Positions 8,320 to 58,964 are shown, numbered from the stretch's first letter. The stretch: DNA of 64,000 nt from Escherichia coli (GCF_024223415.1 NZ_CP100500.1), one strand, 5' to 3'. The notes: generated by a model not told the origin, from the sequence alone. A program made the numbers and translations.

Positions 8320-8555
8320 ATATAGCGCACGATTTGTAGCAGGATGCGGCGTTGACCCCGCATCCGGCAATCAACGTCTGATGCGACGCTAGCGCGTCTT
8401 ATCAGACCTACAACAGCTGCCACATGTCGGCTGAGGTGCTCACGCCGCATCCGGCAATCAACGTCTGATGCGACGCTTGCGCGTCTTATCAGACCTACAA
8501 CCGTTGCCACATGTAGGCTGGATAAGGCGTTCACGCCGCATCCGGCAATACAAGT
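8320..8555. repeat. BIME: two tandem ~87-bp REP-containing units plus flanking palindromic units
   Basis: catccggcaatcaacgtctgatgcgacgct[a/t]gcgcgtcttatcagacctacaac... occurs twice, offset about 87 bp (8361 and 8448). Confidence 0.85.
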
Positions 8556-29689: not shown

Positions 29690-29835
<146 letters not shown>

Positions 29836-35279: not shown

Positions 35280-35789
35280 ATGGCGACGCTGACAGAAGAT
35301 GATGTGCTTGAGCAACTGGATGCACAGGACAATTTATTTTCATTTATGAAAACTGCGCATTCTATTTTGCTCCAGGGGATACGCCAGTTTCTGCCGTCGC
35401 TGTTTGTCGATAACGATGAAGAGATCGTCGAATATGCAGTGAAGCCGTTACTCGCCCAAAGCGGCCCGCTTGACGATATTGATGTCGCACTGCGTTTGAT
35501 TTATGCGCTGGGGAAAATGGATAAATGGCTGTACGCCGATATCACGCATTTTTCCCTGTTCTGGCATTACCTGAACGAACAGGATGAAGCGCCCGGATTT
35601 GCCGATGACATGACCTGGGATTTTATCAGCAACGTCAATAGCATAACCTGCAATGCGACGCTCTATGACGCGTTGAAAGCGATGAAGTTCGCCGATTTCG
35701 CCGTCTGGTCAGAGGCGCGTTTTAGCGGAATGGTCAAAACGGCGCTGACGCTGGCAGTAACGACCACCTTAAAGGAATTAACGCCGTGA
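35280..35789 (+). CDS. yggD: MtlR-like transcriptional regulator YggD
   Basis: 169-aa ORF MATLTEDDVLEQLDAQDNLFSFMKTAHSILLQGIRQF... Confidence 0.85.
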   Translation: MATLTEDDVLEQLDAQDNLFSFMKTAHSILLQGIRQFLPSLFVDNDEEIVEYAVKPLLAQSGPLDDIDVALRLIYALGKMDKWLYADITHFSLFWHYLNEQDEAPGFADDMTWDFISNVNSITCNATLYDALKAMKFADFAVWSEARFSGMVKTALTLAVTTTLKELTP

Positions 35790-36499
35790 AAATTGAATTA
35801 ACGGTGAATGGGCTGAACGTGCAAGCGCAGTACCATGATGAAGAGATAGAACGCGTGCATAAACCGTTGCTGCGTATGCTGGCGGCCTTACAGACGGTAA
35901 ATCCGCAGCGCCGAACCGTGGTTTTTCTTTGCGCTCCGCCGGGGACGGGGAAATCTACCCTAACCACCTTCTGGGAATACCTCGCGCAACAAGACCCGGA
36001 ACTGCCCGCTATTCAGACGCTGCCGATGGATGGTTTTCACCATTACAATAGCTGGCTGGATGCGCATCAATTGCGCCCCTTCAAAGGCGCACCAGATACA
36101 TTCGATGTGGCGAAACTGGCGGAAAATCTGCGCCAGGTAGTGGAAGGGGATTGTACGTGGCCGCAATACGATCGACAAAAGCATGATCCGGTTGAAGATG
36201 CGTTGCACGTTACCGCACCACTCGTCATCGTCGAAGGAAACTGGTTGTTGCTGGACGACGAGAAGTGGTGCCAGCTTGCGCAATTTTGTGATTTCTCGAT
36301 CTTTATCAACGCGCCAGCTACTGCGTTGCGGGAACGACTGGTAGGGCGCAAGCTGGCGGGAGGGGTATCGCTGGCAGATGCAGAAGCTTTTTATGACCGT
36401 ACCGACGGGCCGAATGTTCGCCGGGTGCTGGAAGAGAGTCTGCCTGCAAATTTGACTTTAATGATGACCGCTACGGGTGAATATCGTCTGGTGGATTAA
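35786..36499 (+). CDS. yggC: P-loop nucleoside/pantothenate kinase-like protein YggC
   Basis: 237-aa ORF with Walker A PPGTGKST; MKIELTVNGLNVQAQYHDEEIERVHKPLLRML... Confidence 0.88.
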   Translation: MKIELTVNGLNVQAQYHDEEIERVHKPLLRMLAALQTVNPQRRTVVFLCAPPGTGKSTLTTFWEYLAQQDPELPAIQTLPMDGFHHYNSWLDAHQLRPFKGAPDTFDVAKLAENLRQVVEGDCTWPQYDRQKHDPVEDALHVTAPLVIVEGNWLLLDDEKWCQLAQFCDFSIFINAPATALRERLVGRKLAGGVSLADAEAFYDRTDGPNVRRVLEESLPANLTLMMTATGEYRLVD

Positions 36500-37148
36500 C
36501 GTTCCTGATTAGACCATCTTCCAGTCGCACCACACGAGAGAAATGACGCCGGGTAAATGCGGCGTCATGACTGATTGCTACGACGCTCGTGCCTCGCTGG
36601 CGGCACTTCTCCAGCCAGCTTTCAAACACGCTCAACCAATTTTCGTCAAAATCCCGACTCGGCTCGTCCAGCAGCAATAGTGGCGGAGAGAGTGCTTCCA
36701 GGCAGGCGACGGCGACCATCCGTCGCTGCGCACTATGCAGATCCAACGGGTGCGCGTTGGCAGTGTCTGCTAACTGACAACATTGCAGGGCAGCATGGGT
36801 ACGTTGAGTGATTTCATCCGCCGGGCATTTTTGCAGTTTCAAACCAAATGCGATCTCGTCAGCGACGGTGCTGTGAAAAAGTTGGTTTTCCGCTTCCTGA
36901 AACAGTACGCCAATCTTTGCCGCGCGCTGGCGGTTTTTCAGGTTTTTCATCGCCTGTTGTTGCAGCATAACCGTACCGGCTGTGGGCGTAAGAAGACCTG
37001 CCATTACTCGTAACAGCGTCGATTTCCCTGCGCCATTGTCGCCGGTCAGCGCCAACCATTCACCTTGTTTGAGTTGCAGAGAAATGTCGCAAAGACAATC
37101 CGTTGCCGCGCCAGGCCAGCGATAAGATATCTGATTTAACGTTAACAT
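36471..37148 (-). CDS. ABC/ECF-type ATPase subunit with degenerate signature and Walker B motifs (EcfA'-like)
   Basis: MLTLNQISYRW...; Walker A GDNGAGKST, signature position reads LHSAQRR instead of LSGGQ, Walker B LLLLDEPS; its 3' end overlaps the yggC 3' end convergently. Confidence 0.7.
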   Translation of the reverse strand: MLTLNQISYRWPGAATDCLCDISLQLKQGEWLALTGDNGAGKSTLLRVMAGLLTPTAGTVMLQQQAMKNLKNRQRAAKIGVLFQEAENQLFHSTVADEIAFGLKLQKCPADEITQRTHAALQCCQLADTANAHPLDLHSAQRRMVAVACLEALSPPLLLLDEPSRDFDENWLSVFESWLEKCRQRGTSVVAISHDAAFTRRHFSRVVRLEDGLIRNVNPPDDIHP

Positions 37149-37825
37149 AGTGGCTGGAGCGCTCCGTTTTGCAATTGCCACGCTTGCTGGCAGTAGTTCA
37201 GGAAAGGTGTGCGATGACGTTCAAAAAGAATAATCAGCGAACCACGTTCAAACGCCCAGTGTTGTAAGCGCTGCAACAGCATTTCGCTGGCCTGCGGCGT
37301 CAGGCGGCTAAAGGCTTCATCAAGAATTAATAGCTTTGGCTGCATCGCGATGGCGCAGGCGATGACCACGCGCTGTGTCTCTCCACCGGAGAGTGTTGCC
37401 GGGTGACGATGGCGCAACGGCTGGCACTCGGTCAGAGTCAGGGCGGCATCAATCCGAGCCATAATCTCTGCTTCAGCAAGACACAGATTTTCTGGCCCAA
37501 AGGCAACTTCTTCTTCCACGCTAAAGGTACAGCCGGAGAGCTGCAAATAGGGCGATTGCTGGACGAGCTGGATGGTGGCGGATTGTTCATTAAGCGGGAG
37601 ATGCCCAATGGGCGTACCGAGGAGCGTCCCCGTGCCTGTTATCTCTCCTGGCAGAAAGTCCGGATACCAGCCCGCCATCAGCTGTGCCAGCGTACTTTTG
37701 CCACTGCCGTTGTCACCAAAGATGGCGACCATCCCCGGTTTGACATAGTGAAAGTCATAACAGAACGGAGGATGTGTTGAGTGTGTCGGGCAATAACGGA
37801 ACTGTTCTAACGTAACCATATCCAC
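37142..37825 (-). CDS. ABC/ECF-type ATPase subunit (EcfA-like)
   Basis: Walker A GDNGSGKST, signature LSGGETQR, Walker B LLILDEA; start overlaps the preceding gene. Confidence 0.75.
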   Translation of the reverse strand: MDMVTLEQFRYCPTHSTHPPFCYDFHYVKPGMVAIFGDNGSGKSTLAQLMAGWYPDFLPGEITGTGTLLGTPIGHLPLNEQSATIQLVQQSPYLQLSGCTFSVEEEVAFGPENLCLAEAEIMARIDAALTLTECQPLRHRHPATLSGGETQRVVIACAIAMQPKLLILDEAFSRLTPQASEMLLQRLQHWAFERGSLIILFERHRTPFLNYCQQAWQLQNGALQPLC

Positions 37826-38514
37826 GCTCCGAATTCTGTCAGCATCAGCAAGATCATGGTGTAACGCGCTACGCGTTGTAGGGTGCTATCGGCTGGTGCC
37901 CACAACGTTGTTCGTCGATTGTGGATCCGAAATGCCCGCATATCCAGCGCCGCACCACGGACAGCAAGATCGTTTAGCGCATTGTGTGTTAGCGGAATAA
38001 TTAACGCGGGCATCGCACGTAAACGCTGATACCAGCCCTCATCCAGCGGCACGCCGCGGGCACGCTGCGCTTCATGAATAATCGCTAATTGCCGTTTTAA
38101 CTGCTCAACGACCAATAACGGCCCGGCAAACAGATAAGCGACGCCTGGCGGCAGGCGAGAAGCAAACAGAGCGCGGATAAAACATTGCACGGGGACGTAC
38201 TGCATCCACAACTGTGAGGTTGAAACAATCGCCAGAATCCGCAACCAGAGCGTAATAGCATGCGTCCAACGCTCCGGCGAACGCGGCGTGCCGCTTAGCC
38301 ATTCTGTTAGCCAGCCACCGTGTACCAGCCACAGCCCGGCTCCCAGCGAGAACATCAGCCAGACGACATATTTTGCCCGCCGCCGCGTGGCCTTTAGCGC
38401 AATAAGGCAGAAAAAGGTCGCCGCGCTATAGATCGGCAAAATGGTCTGCGCGGGCAGGATAAGCGTGGTGCAGGCCGCCAATGCCCACAGTGTTAATGAG
38501 GTAAATGGATGCAT
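37807..38514 (-). CDS. ECF transporter transmembrane T component (CbiQ/EcfT family)
   Basis: 235-aa polytopic membrane ORF with C-terminal Arg-rich coupling-helix region (...AIIHEAQRARGVPLDEGWYQRLRAMP...). Confidence 0.65.
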   Translation of the reverse strand: MHPFTSLTLWALAACTTLILPAQTILPIYSAATFFCLIALKATRRRAKYVVWLMFSLGAGLWLVHGGWLTEWLSGTPRSPERWTHAITLWLRILAIVSTSQLWMQYVPVQCFIRALFASRLPPGVAYLFAGPLLVVEQLKRQLAIIHEAQRARGVPLDEGWYQRLRAMPALIIPLTHNALNDLAVRGAALDMRAFRIHNRRTTLWAPADSTLQRVARYTMILLMLTEFGAWIWLR

Positions 38515-39093
38515 TTAGCGCACGGCAGCCATTGCCGGAAAATGGCGCGTGGTGCGAATCGGCAGCTGGCGCAGTAAAAGCCAGACAATCACCGCTGTAA
38601 GAGTTTTATCGACCAGGTTCGCGCCTATCACCGTAATCGCCACCGACTCCACCAGGTTTTGCCCCATCGAGTGCATCCAGGCAACGAACAAATCGGCTCC
38701 GCTACCGGTGACACCGCCGAACAGCGCAGTACGCAGCGGTACAGCGACGACCGTTACCGCAAGCGTAATAATCACGCCGCTGACAACGACTTTTGGCAGG
38801 GTGCGGAACCAACCCGCTCGCGCCAGCCAACCGGCGACCAGGCCGATGACCATCGCCACGGGCGCAAATGCGGCGGCGATCGGGTCGGTCAGCAATCCCC
38901 AGAGTAAATTGGTCAGTAAACCGGTCAGCATCCCGATCACCGGACCAAGCAGTACCGCGCTAATAAGTGTGCCGATGGAGTCGAGAAATATAGGTAATTT
39001 GACCATGCTGGCCAGTTGCCCGCCGATCATATTGATGGCGATAGATATAACGATTAACACCAGCGCCTGACTGGAAAAGTGGCTACGCGCCAT
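38515..39093 (-). CDS. ECF transporter substrate-specific S component (small integral membrane protein)
   Basis: 192-aa hydrophobic ORF MARSHFSSQALVLIVISIAINMIGGQLASMVKLPIFLDSIGTLISAVLLGP...; GAGAGG ribosome-binding site 7 nt upstream of this Met; stop abuts the T-component start. Confidence 0.6.
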   Translation of the reverse strand: MARSHFSSQALVLIVISIAINMIGGQLASMVKLPIFLDSIGTLISAVLLGPVIGMLTGLLTNLLWGLLTDPIAAAFAPVAMVIGLVAGWLARAGWFRTLPKVVVSGVIITLAVTVVAVPLRTALFGGVTGSGADLFVAWMHSMGQNLVESVAITVIGANLVDKTLTAVIVWLLLRQLPIRTTRHFPAMAAVR

Positions 39094-39115
39094 AAGAAAA
39101 CCTCTCTGAAAGTAG

Positions 39116-39547
39116 TTATTTAACGGGGGAAATATGCAACTCGTCGTAACCAGAAAGCGCGCAAGGTTGGCGGCTAAACGCCAGTTCCTCAAGGCTACCG
39201 ATCACCAGTTCAAGCGTGGTCCGCACGGTACAGCCGGGCATCATATGACCGCCAAGCATCGTGCCGTGTGGATCGGAAACGCAGAGATGAAGATGCTCAC
39301 CACTCTGTTCCAACGTGCCGTTTAGTGAGATCACTTCGAATGTACCGTTCAGGAGCGTGGTGCCTTCTTGCCCGGCATAGCGCAAGGCGATGTCAGTCAG
39401 GCTACCGGTACAGCCTGCAATCCAGGCGGCATGAAGTTGCTGCTGCTGTGCAAAAGCGTGTAGCTGGGAAAAAACTTCCTGCCCGGGGAGGAGGCGCAGT
39501 GCGTAAAAGCGTGCGGAGGAAGAATATGGGTAGGGCAATGTCATCAT
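39116..39547 (-). CDS. PPC/DUF296-domain protein (AT-hook-less PPC DNA-binding-like), first gene of the ECF-type operon
   Basis: 143-aa ORF MMTLPYPYSSSARFYALRLLPGQEVFSQLHAFAQQQQLHAAWIAGCTGSLTD...; family assignment from memory of DUF296 proteins. Confidence 0.5.
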   Translation of the reverse strand: MMTLPYPYSSSARFYALRLLPGQEVFSQLHAFAQQQQLHAAWIAGCTGSLTDIALRYAGQEGTTLLNGTFEVISLNGTLEQSGEHLHLCVSDPHGTMLGGHMMPGCTVRTTLELVIGSLEELAFSRQPCALSGYDELHISPVK

Positions 39548-39918
39548 TGGAGTACTCCGAAACTCGGACGTATTGCGGATAATATCGACGCTGCATCAGT
39601 CATATTCTGATATAAGTCAGGGTTTGTGACGGCACAACGAAAAGATTTTGCTACGCTTATTCGTGATTCTGCAAAGTGGAATAAATTCCACAGGGGCGGG
39701 GCTGAAAACGTGACGTAAGTCAGATAATTGTCTTCTTTGACTGGACAATCATTCCTTTTATTCCACGTTTCGCTTATCCTAGCTGAAGCGTTTCAGTCGA
39801 TTAAATGTTCGACAATTAACCAATCAGTCGCAGTTTGCGACAGGTAAGGTTTCCCCGGACGATTTGCTGGATTACTCTGTCTGGCAAATTTGCTCAGGGA
39901 AAACCTTGCAGGAGATCT

Positions 39919-40938
39919 ATGACCGTACGCGTAGCGATAAATGGCTTCGGTCGCATCGGGCGTAATGTGGTTCGTGCTTTGTATGAATCCGGACGCCGGG
40001 CGGAAATTACCGTGGTGGCAATCAACGAACTGGCGGATGCTGCGGGCATGGCGCATTTGTTGAAATATGACACCAGCCATGGCCGTTTTGCATGGGAAGT
40101 ACGACAGGAACGCGATCAACTTTTTGTTGGTGATGACGCCATCCGCGTATTGCATGAACGTTCACTGCAATCGCTCCCCTGGCGTGAACTTGGCGTTGAT
40201 GTAGTCCTCGACTGCACCGGCGTATATGGCTCCCGCGAGCATGGCGAAGCGCATATTGCCGCCGGGGCCAAAAAAGTGCTCTTTTCACATCCTGGCAGTA
40301 ACGATCTCGACGCGACCGTTGTTTACGGCGTCAATCAGGATCAACTTCGTGCGGAACACCGCATCGTTTCTAACGCTTCCTGTACCACGAATTGCATAAT
40401 TCCCGTCATCAAATTGTTAGATGATGCGTACGGTATTGAGTCCGGCACTGTGACCACAATTCACTCCGCCATGCACGATCAACAGGTTATTGATGCATAC
40501 CATCCTGACCTGCGTCGCACCCGGGCAGCCAGCCAGTCGATCATTCCGGTCGATACTAAACTGGCCGCCGGTATCACACGATTTTTTCCGCAATTTAACG
40601 ATCGCTTTGAAGCGATTGCGGTACGTGTGCCAACCATAAATGTGACGGCAATCGATTTAAGCGTGACGGTGAAGAAACCTGTAAAAGCCAATGAAGTCAA
40701 CCTGTTGCTGCAAAAAGCAGCACAAGGTGCATTTCATGGTATAGTTGACTATACGGAATTGCCGTTGGTCTCTGTAGATTTTAACCACGATCCGCACAGT
40801 GCCATTGTCGATGGCACCCAAACCCGGGTCAGTGGCGCACACCTGATCAAAACGTTGGTCTGGTGCGATAACGAATGGGGCTTTGCTAACCGAATGCTCG
40901 ACACGACGTTAGCTATGGCTACTGTTGCTTTCAGGTAA
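39919..40938 (+). CDS. epd: D-erythrose-4-phosphate dehydrogenase
   Basis: [55 protein letters not shown]...; internal Met chosen. Confidence 0.95.
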
Positions 40939-43502: not shown

Positions 43503-43635
43503 AAAAATTGCCTGATGCGCTACGCTTATCAGGCCTACACGTATCCTGCAATATATTGAATTCGCAGGTTTTTGTAGGCCGGATAAGGCGTTCACGCCGC
43601 ATCCGGCATGACAAAGCGCACATTGATATCTGTCT
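43503..43635. repeat. BIME / REP pair
   Basis: gcctgatgcgctacgcttatcaggcctac ... gtaggccggataaggcgttcacgccgcatccggc. Confidence 0.8.
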
Positions 43636-58749: not shown

Positions 58750-58905
58750 ACAGGGCTGTAACGCTAAAGCCCTCACCGAAGCGAGGGCTTGAAGGAGAAG
58801 GGTTATGATGCGACTTGTCATCATACTGATTGTACTGTTACTCATAAGTTTCCCAGCTTATTAACAGTCAGTCTCAGGGGAGGAGTCATCCTCCCTTACC
58901 CTTAC
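58750..58905 (-). ncRNA. sibC: SibC antisense sRNA (type I antitoxin) overlapping ibsC; ends approximate
   Basis: Inferred from the ibsC position and the known Sib/Ibs architecture; hairpin aagccctcaccgaagcgagggctt at 58757-58780 could serve as the minus-strand terminator. Confidence 0.4.
58805..58864 (+). CDS. ibsC: type I toxin peptide IbsC (19 aa, hydrophobic)
   Basis: atgatgcgacttgtcatcatactgattgtactgttactcataagtttcccagcttattaa gives MMRLVIILIVLLLISFPAY; sits in the serA/ygfA intergenic region as in K-12. Confidence 0.7.
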   Translation: MMRLVIILIVLLLISFPAY

Positions 58906-58964
58906 TCACTAAATTAGGTTAAAGAATCAACGATGTCAATCAGGGCGATGCAGGTGTGTCGCCC

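Follow-up and report, generated by a model that had tools for sequence, protein, structure and literature searches.

A PCC-domain protein and an ECF-type transporter form a conserved five-gene cassette at O-island 119, between yggC and epd, in Escherichia coli

A 64,000-nucleotide stretch of an Escherichia coli chromosome (GCF_024223415.1, NZ_CP100500.1), hereafter the window, carries five minus-strand genes between yggC and epd. These encode a protein with a PCC (also called PPC or DUF296) domain, the S (substrate-capture) and T (energy-coupling) components of an energy-coupling factor (ECF) transporter, and two ATPases, here termed A and A'. The block has already been described as O-island 119 (OI-119) of enterohemorrhagic E. 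coli (EHEC) and its first gene as lmiA, while the transporter itself has not been characterized. Comparison of homologous loci indicates that PCC-S-T-A-A' is a self-contained cassette conserved across several phyla. It is considered probable that the five genes specify a dedicated ECF importer for a small, probably organic solute together with LmiA, an obligate partner with a zinc site that would link cargo or metal to transcription. Since the locus is published, it is not presented as a discovery; the sections below concern what the block encodes, how it is distributed, and how the published properties of LmiA might be understood in that context.

Gene content of the block and its identity with OI-119

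An ORF listing of the window confirmed five open reading frames (ORFs) in series between yggC and epd, and all five are named in the RefSeq annotation of one genome that is 100% identical over the query, identified in a megablast search of 5,426 complete E. coli genomes. The RefSeq labels are PPC domain-containing DNA-binding protein, ECF S, transmembrane component T, and two ABC ATP-binding proteins. The genes and their flanks are as follows.

35786-36499, plus strand: yggC, left flank (ORF listing)
36471-37148, minus strand: ATPase A', 225 amino acids (aa) (RefSeq annotation; best NCBIfam match ECF_ATPase_2)
37142-37819, minus strand: ATPase A, 225 aa (RefSeq annotation; best NCBIfam match ECF_ATPase_1)
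37807-38514, minus strand: ECF T (energy-coupling) component, 235 aa (RefSeq annotation; weak CbiQ match)
38515-39093, minus strand: ECF S (substrate-capture) component, 192 aa (RefSeq annotation; PF12822)
39116-39547, minus strand: lmiA (z4267 ortholog), PCC/DUF296 protein, 143 aa (RefSeq annotation; PF03479)
39919-40938, plus strand: epd, right flank (ORF listing)

An earlier reading of this DNA, made from the sequence alone and without database searches (the sequence-only reading), had proposed the same gene content and order, and both are borne out by the RefSeq annotation and by profile searches. The genes exist where that reading had placed them, but three of its outer gene ends (39192, 37825, and 37181) are those of the longest mechanical ORFs, and homologs as well as PGAP favor shorter starts. 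Its statement that start and stop codons overlap or abut holds for the four transporter genes, where the junctions as read from the sequence are a stop and start that abut between S and T (TAAATG), a 13-nt overlap between T and A, and a 7-nt overlap between A and A', and where the translational coupling that it suggested is accordingly supported. It does not hold for PCC and S, which are separated by a 22-nt gap with a Shine-Dalgarno-like GAGAGG and no overlap. At the other end of the block, A' and yggC are convergent and their 3' ends overlap by 29 nt.

OI-119 of EHEC O157:H7 strain EDL933 consists of five genes, z4267 to z4271 (Liu et al., mBio 2020, PMC7667037). In that study z4267 is lmiA, encoding a DUF296 protein with a putative zinc site formed by His85, His87, and His101, z4268 and z4269 are listed as hypothetical, and z4270 and z4271 are listed as ABC ATP-binding proteins (PMC7667037). 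The order on the EDL933 chromosome (epd, PPC, S, T, A, A', yggC) matches that of the window, the RefSeq accessions WP_000988700.1 (PPC), WP_000124313.1 (S), and WP_000256969.1 (A) are common to EDL933 and the 100%-match genome, and His85, His87, and His101 of the window protein agree with the published numbering. Because gene order, accessions, promoter elements, and His numbering are the same as in EDL933, the block is OI-119 and its first gene is lmiA; locus, order, flanks, promoter elements, and the LmiA, S, and A proteins are identical, with no structural difference between the two. Published work has shown that PhoP activates lmiA at low magnesium (PMC7667037), that LmiA binds at the promoters of ler, gadA, and gadBC and regulates the enterocyte effacement locus (LEE) and the gad genes, that it acts on LEE and acid resistance in EHEC as well as in enteropathogenic E. 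coli (EPEC), and that biofilm genes are repressed by it indirectly (PMC7667037, PMC11657066). The sequence-only reading was thus unaware that its PCC gene is a published, PhoP-activated regulator, although its suggestion that the PCC protein could be a regulator agrees with the role reported for LmiA (PMC7667037, PMC11657066).

The ECF-type transporter

The block encodes two ABC ATPases together with S and T components and has no solute-binding protein among its ORFs. An ECF type, as proposed by the sequence-only reading, follows from this arrangement, from the CbiQ homology and Arg motifs of T, from the ECF_ATPase models that score best for both ATPases, and from the abutting or overlapping genes; the fold of S is of the same kind. 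In these respects the block resembles group I ECF transporters (BioMNY, CbiMNQO), in which S, T, and two ATPases likewise occur together without a solute-binding protein. It differs from them in its distinct S component, its additional PCC cistron, its short (225-aa) ATPases with one predicted degenerate ATP site, and its only weakly CbiQ-like T component. No ORF for CbiM/NikM or CbiN/NikN was found in the block, either in the ORF listing or with NCBIfam models.

The S component matches PF12822 (E = 8e-8) and is predicted to be a small, six-helix integral-membrane protein with the ECF S fold (AlphaFold model, pLDDT 92), and by structure comparison the model lies closer to S components of the vitamin type than it does to CbiM. 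Its identity to solved S components does not exceed 22%, and a sequence search of the PDB with it returned no match. The best-scoring family model is NF045596 (CD3073 family), which aligns over nearly the full length with 134.9 bits (E = 2.2e-39); because this is below the curated cutoff of 180, S is regarded as a relative and not a member of the CD3073 family. Classification by hidden Markov models (HMMs), the check that had been recommended, therefore places S in a distinct family of its own, consistent with the earlier impression that it does not resemble BioY, CbiM, ThiT, or RibU. The polar residues conserved in S are Asn21, Asp38, Thr42, and Asp162-Lys163, and no conserved His, Cys, or Met was seen across its homologs. 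In some relatives S is fused to a CbiQ-type T domain. Long proteins matching S were considered as possible clues to the substrate and set aside, being either such S-T fusions or unrelated membrane sensor kinases.

The T component has a weak match to CbiQ (E = 2.7e-4) and none in NCBIfam, and its Salmonella counterpart (locus L011, 7580-8287) has no Pfam match on record. Its translation contains the motifs QRARG and ALDMRAF, and the two Arg motifs are conserved in 72 homologs. ATPase A scores best with ECF_ATPase_1 (120 bits, below the cutoff of 315) and, in the window sequence and in the family consensus, has a Walker A motif, an LSGGE signature, and a Walker B motif but no conserved H-loop His. 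ATPase A' scores best with ECF_ATPase_2 (149 bits, below the cutoff of 330) and has Walker A and B motifs, an SHD H-loop, and a degenerate signature, LHSAQ, with the family consensus reading DLxxxQRR in place of LSGGQ. By standard ABC geometry, the A/A' pair would have one consensus and one degenerate ATP site. Models of defense systems (PADLOC) gave only generic P-loop matches.

Conservation of the cassette across bacteria

When 1.8 billion representative proteins were searched using S as the query, 740 matches were obtained at E <= 1e-10, extending down to approximately 30% identity. From a scan of one genome per species, 80 loci were assembled, their ORFs were called and searched with the five window proteins, and iterated HMMs were used for PCC, S, and T. 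In 67 of the 78 testable loci, or 68 of 78 when one fused ORF is included, the gene directly upstream of S encodes a PCC protein and has the same orientation; T follows S in 74 of the 80 loci, and A and A' are generally conserved. The linked loci are found in Enterobacterales (Enterobacteriaceae, Morganellaceae, Hafnia, Budvicia), Aeromonas, Wohlfahrtiimonas, Betaproteobacteria, Alphaproteobacteria (Rhizobium, Brucella, Kaistia, Aminobacter, Paracoccus), Desulfobulbaceae, Synergistaceae, and some Anaerolineae (Chloroflexi). The PCC linkage does not extend to two orphan S genes in Kaistia or to the most distant of the Chloroflexi loci, in which S is at most 45% identical. A PCC-domain protein as the first cistron of a transporter operon, which the sequence-only reading had considered unusual, is therefore a conserved feature of this whole transporter family, and the remark holds in a stronger form than it was made.

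Clustering of all ORFs in the 80 loci revealed no gene family, other than the five of the cassette, that recurs in three or more clades. Likewise, NCBIfam classification of 20 immediate neighbors gave no clue to the substrate, since their functions are unrelated (purC, mtfA, pyrD, a taurine-binding protein, TsuA, CopA, xthA, an RND adaptor, and response regulators). Given that no other family recurs and that the neighbors are unrelated, the five genes, including the PCC gene, constitute a functional unit. Metagenomic contigs carrying distant S homologs were too short or uninformative with respect to the substrate. In Citrobacter sp. R56 (locus L081, 6428-7579), PCC and S form one continuous ORF, which may be a fusion that occurs naturally or may result from a sequencing error in the stop codon of PCC.

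LmiA and competing explanations of the cassette

LmiA matches PF03479 (E = 4e-28) and has the PCC domain and fold. In 71 cassette-linked PCC proteins, 19 of its residues are invariant, and these include three His (His85, His87, His101), three Arg (Arg18, Arg56, Arg126), three Glu (Glu71, Glu113, Glu136), and the pair Thr110-Thr111. The His residues form a triad, H85-x-H87-x13-H101, that is also kept in VCA0587, PH0802, and AF0104. The only structural relatives of LmiA outside the PCC family are alpha-acetolactate decarboxylase (ALDC) and C11orf54/PTD012 (beta-keto-L-gulonate decarboxylase), both of which decarboxylate beta-keto acids, have a Zn(His3) site, and contain an H-x-H...H triad (PMC12337341). 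Sequence identity to these enzymes is 9-20%, and LmiA differs from them in being a single small domain, in having no known catalytic activity, and in having been reported to bind DNA. LmiA is acidic (pI 5.5) and has no recognizable DNA-binding fold. PF03479 is also common to LmiA and the plant AHL proteins, which combine an AT-hook with a PPC domain; LmiA has no AT-hook, and in AHL proteins it is the AT-hook, not the PPC domain, that contacts DNA.

In the explanation that is considered probable, S would capture a small, probably organic solute on the outward-facing side of the membrane and T would couple S to a heterodimer of the two short ATPases. LmiA, with its His3 metal site, would be the obligate cytoplasmic partner of the transporter family and would most likely sense or bind the imported cargo, or metal, and convert this into a transcriptional output. 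Transcription begins at the PhoP-activated promoter in the epd-lmiA spacer and may also begin at an anaerobic, FNR-type promoter. Here, we infer the direction of transport, the organic nature of the cargo, the co-transcription of the five genes, and the coupling of LmiA to the cargo. Several points weigh against this explanation. The T component and both ATPases score far below curated NCBIfam cutoffs, and no transport assay or ligand was found for any family member in the literature searched. Co-transcription of the five genes is described only as putative in PMC11481890. Deletion of z4268-z4271 had no effect on adherence, LEE expression, or LmiA phenotypes (PMC7667037), indicating that, in the conditions used, LmiA does not need the transporter in order to act. 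The window contains no match to the published LmiA motif with three or fewer mismatches, and autoregulation of the operon is thus not supported. Lastly, the acidic pI, the lack of a DNA-binding fold, and the enzymatic relatives of LmiA mean that processing of the cargo fits at least as well as regulation.

Were processing its primary role, an LmiA-type PCC protein would be a zinc-dependent, decarboxylase- or hydrolase-like enzyme acting on the imported cargo, and DNA binding would be secondary, indirect, or a moonlighting activity. The relationship to the Zn(His3) decarboxylases, the invariance of the His triad and its accompanying Glu and Arg residues in the 71 homologs and the persistence of the triad in VCA0587, PH0802, and AF0104, the acidic pI without a DNA-binding fold, and a fixed first-cistron place in a transporter cassette across phyla, which is typical of salvage enzymes, all argue for such a role. 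Nevertheless, electrophoretic mobility shift assays, DNase I footprinting, chromatin immunoprecipitation with quantitative PCR, and reporters support direct DNA binding (PMC7667037, PMC11657066), no PCC protein has been reported to be catalytically active, and the single 143-aa domain compares with approximately 235 aa in ALDC, such that a primarily enzymatic LmiA is possible but rather unlikely. A role in the import of cobalt or another transition metal, with LmiA/STM3071 as a metal-sensing regulator or chaperone, is improbable. That proposal derives from the orthologous, epd-adjacent operon of Salmonella enterica (STM3071; PCC structures PDB 2HX0 and 2NMU), in which PCC is 83% and S 91% identical to the window proteins. 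According to PMC11481890, a 2018 thesis cited there takes STM3071 to regulate cobalt transport and the operon to import Co2+, a suggestion made without published data, and the operon groups with anaerobically induced nickel uptake genes (PMC11481890). The His3 metal site of LmiA and the legacy names CbiQ and CbiO would also accord with metal import, although these names are applied generically to the T and A subunits of ECF transporters. Further, the block is devoid of CbiM, NikM, and CbiN, and the conserved polar residues of S are Asn, Asp, Thr, and Lys, with none of the His, Cys, or Met that might be looked for in a metal site. CbiM and NikM carry a metal-binding Met-His motif at the N-terminus, whereas the N-terminus of the window S has no such motif and is not conserved across the family.

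Returning to an importer with LmiA as its partner, a wider claim may be put forward tentatively, namely that LmiA-type PCC proteins are obligate partners of a previously undefined ECF family in at least five phyla and are zinc-dependent, cargo-processing enzymes or cargo sensors related to beta-keto-acid decarboxylases. LmiA might then be the read-out of an ancient nutrient-salvage module.

The promoter and upstream region

The region upstream of the operon is shared with epd, as the sequence-only reading had noted, and contains the published lmiA promoter. Its elements, together with candidate elements suggested by conservation, are as follows.

39637-39721, minus strand: published lmiA promoter, comprising PhoP footprint, PhoP box, -35, -10, and transcription start site (TSS)
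39705-39721, minus strand: putative PhoP box of the published lmiA promoter
39701-39719, minus strand: 19-bp PhoP footprint, CTTACGTCACGTTTTCAGC, an exact and unique match in the window
39669-39674, minus strand: -35 element TTGCAG, read from the sequence
39645-39653, minus strand: -10 element TAGCAAAAT, read from the sequence
39637, minus strand: TSS (T), 90 nt upstream of the ATG
39607-39620, minus strand: candidate second promoter, FNR/CRP-family-like palindrome CTGACTTATATCAG, suggested by conservation
39579-39584, minus strand: conserved TATTAT, 32 nt from the palindrome, center to center
39554-39571, minus strand: tentative small conserved hairpin with the Shine-Dalgarno sequence GGAG

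A TSS at 39637 puts the footprint at -64 to -82, in agreement with PMC7667037. When the epd-lmiA spacer was aligned across 17 Enterobacteriaceae species, the conserved blocks were the footprint region, a CTGAT-N4-ATCAG palindrome, TATTAT, and the Shine-Dalgarno hairpin. The palindrome, CTGACTTATATCAG in the window, is downstream of the published TSS (Liu et al.); its half-sites CTGAT and ATCAG are conserved and the spacer between them is variable, and it occurs at about -75 from the start codon in approximately 19 of 24 Enterobacteriaceae species. This geometry would suit a class II promoter of the FNR/CRP family that starts near 39572, which would put the center of the palindrome at -41.5. 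Such a candidate promoter agrees with the anaerobic activation reported for the Salmonella operon (PMC11481890). The hairpin (ACG-UCCGA-GUU-UCGGA-GU) has a weak stem of -5 to -7 kcal/mol in the 17 species, with one compensatory change, from A:U to G:C, in Superficieibacter.

A riboswitch, for which a scan of the leader had been recommended, was not detected at Rfam gathering thresholds in the window, with permissive settings at 39400-40000, or in 10 diverse loci; Rfam matches to the leader at E values of up to 10 comprised one chance match on the opposite strand only. The sequence-only reading was correct in assigning no substrate. On the epd side of the spacer, a palindrome at 39783-39796, CTGAAACGCTTCAG, is nearly invariant in the 17 species; judged by the Cra consensus, it resembles a Cra (FruR) operator for epd-pgk.

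Distribution, ancestry, and loss in K-12-type genomes

The full block is present in 3319 of the 5426 complete E. coli genomes (61%), and the genome with the 100% match is that of an isolate from the rectal swab of a healthy student. The cassette also adjoins epd in Salmonella enterica, E. albertii, Citrobacter, Kluyvera, Klebsiella oxytoca, K. michiganensis, Atlantibacter, Pseudescherichia, Enterobacter, Superficieibacter, and Phytobacter, and epd adjacency extends to more than 15 Enterobacteriaceae species in all. On the far side of the operon, the serovar of Salmonella that was examined has tktA and subspecies diarizonae has yggC-fumE, as compared to yggC in the window. The view that ECF transporters are uncommon in E. 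coli is not upheld by this distribution. The sequence-only reading had stated that a widespread, already characterized transporter locus with an assigned substrate would count against its interpretation; the block is indeed widespread and published, but its substrate is still unassigned. That reading was correct in holding that K-12 lacks the block, as K-12-type genomes have yggC, 285 bp, and epd in its place. The segment that differs between genomes with and without the cassette has the following borders.

36200-36499, plus strand: left edge of the polymorphic segment, at the yggC 3' end, where cassette-bearing and cassette-less genomes differ in sequence
39697/39698, no strand: right breakpoint of this segment, within the lmiA promoter and just downstream of the PhoP footprint

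Toward the left edge, the identity of yggC to its K-12-type counterpart (locus L002, 4626-4925) drops from 82% to 64% to 54% along the last 300 nt. For the C-terminal 77 aa of YggC, the K-12-type protein is 62.5% identical to that of the window and the E. albertii protein 93.8%. The K-12-type yggC is itself a mosaic, in which identity to the window is 95% over the first 160 codons and the last 77 are as distant as those of other genera. At the right breakpoint, K-12-type DNA aligns with the window from 39698 onward at 97% and retains a diverged copy of the footprint region. A search of the borders found no direct repeats flanking the block, and a 14-nt stretch that the K-12 spacer has in common with the lmiA promoter (E = 0.9) was taken as chance. 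A 13-nt inverted repeat, AAAGTGGAATAAA and TTTATTCCACGTT (39673-39685 and 39757-39769), brackets the PhoP footprint and the K-12 breakpoint, and TTATTCCA is conserved across species on both sides.

The K-12-type haplotype looks like the product of a replacement by divergent DNA that removed the cassette, rather than the ancestral state, because it is the cassette-less haplotype that has the foreign-looking yggC 3' end. The literature on OI-119 presents the block as horizontally acquired and absent from commensals, with z4268 and z4269 hypothetical, whereas here it is ancestral and common, with z4268 and z4269 encoding ECF S and T components. A virulence island acquired by horizontal transfer and specific to pathogens, the view taken in the EHEC literature, would account for the lack of the block in K-12, for its designation as an O island, and for the control that LmiA exerts over LEE and acid resistance in EHEC and EPEC (PMC7667037, PMC11657066). 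However, the block occurs in most complete E. coli genomes, including that of the healthy student's isolate, and is epd-adjacent in many species; its GC content (0.53-0.58) is not atypical relative to the window (0.51) or the flanking genes (0.52-0.56); and its five ORFs include no integrase or transposase. Together with the lack of flanking repeats and the mosaic yggC of K-12-type genomes, this distribution and synteny argue for a block that is ancestral and vertically inherited and, as far as the genomes compared here extend, they contradict an acquired island, which is accordingly regarded as very improbable.

Implications for LmiA and PCC-domain proteins

E. coli K-12 serves as a host free of ECF transporters, yet one ECF importer appears to be present in most E. 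coli and in many Enterobacteriaceae. Whereas the literature treats lmiA as an acquired and pathogen-specific regulator, the gene is ancestral, common in commensals, and tied to a transporter across phyla, and the low-magnesium, acid-resistance, and LEE phenotypes should therefore be reread in that context. These phenotypes may reflect the sensing of an imported metabolite. To our knowledge, no prokaryotic PCC domain has a known biochemical function, and the combination of a conserved cassette with a putative, decarboxylase-like zinc site offers an experimental handle on PCC function.

Other features of the window

Elsewhere in the window, Rfam models matched features that are ordinary for E. 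coli:

59588-59771: 6S RNA (Rfam)
58789-58939: Sib antitoxin RNA (Rfam)
8425-8495: naRNA4 (Rfam)
29746-29788: ES036, first copy (Rfam)
43531-43573: ES036, second copy (Rfam)

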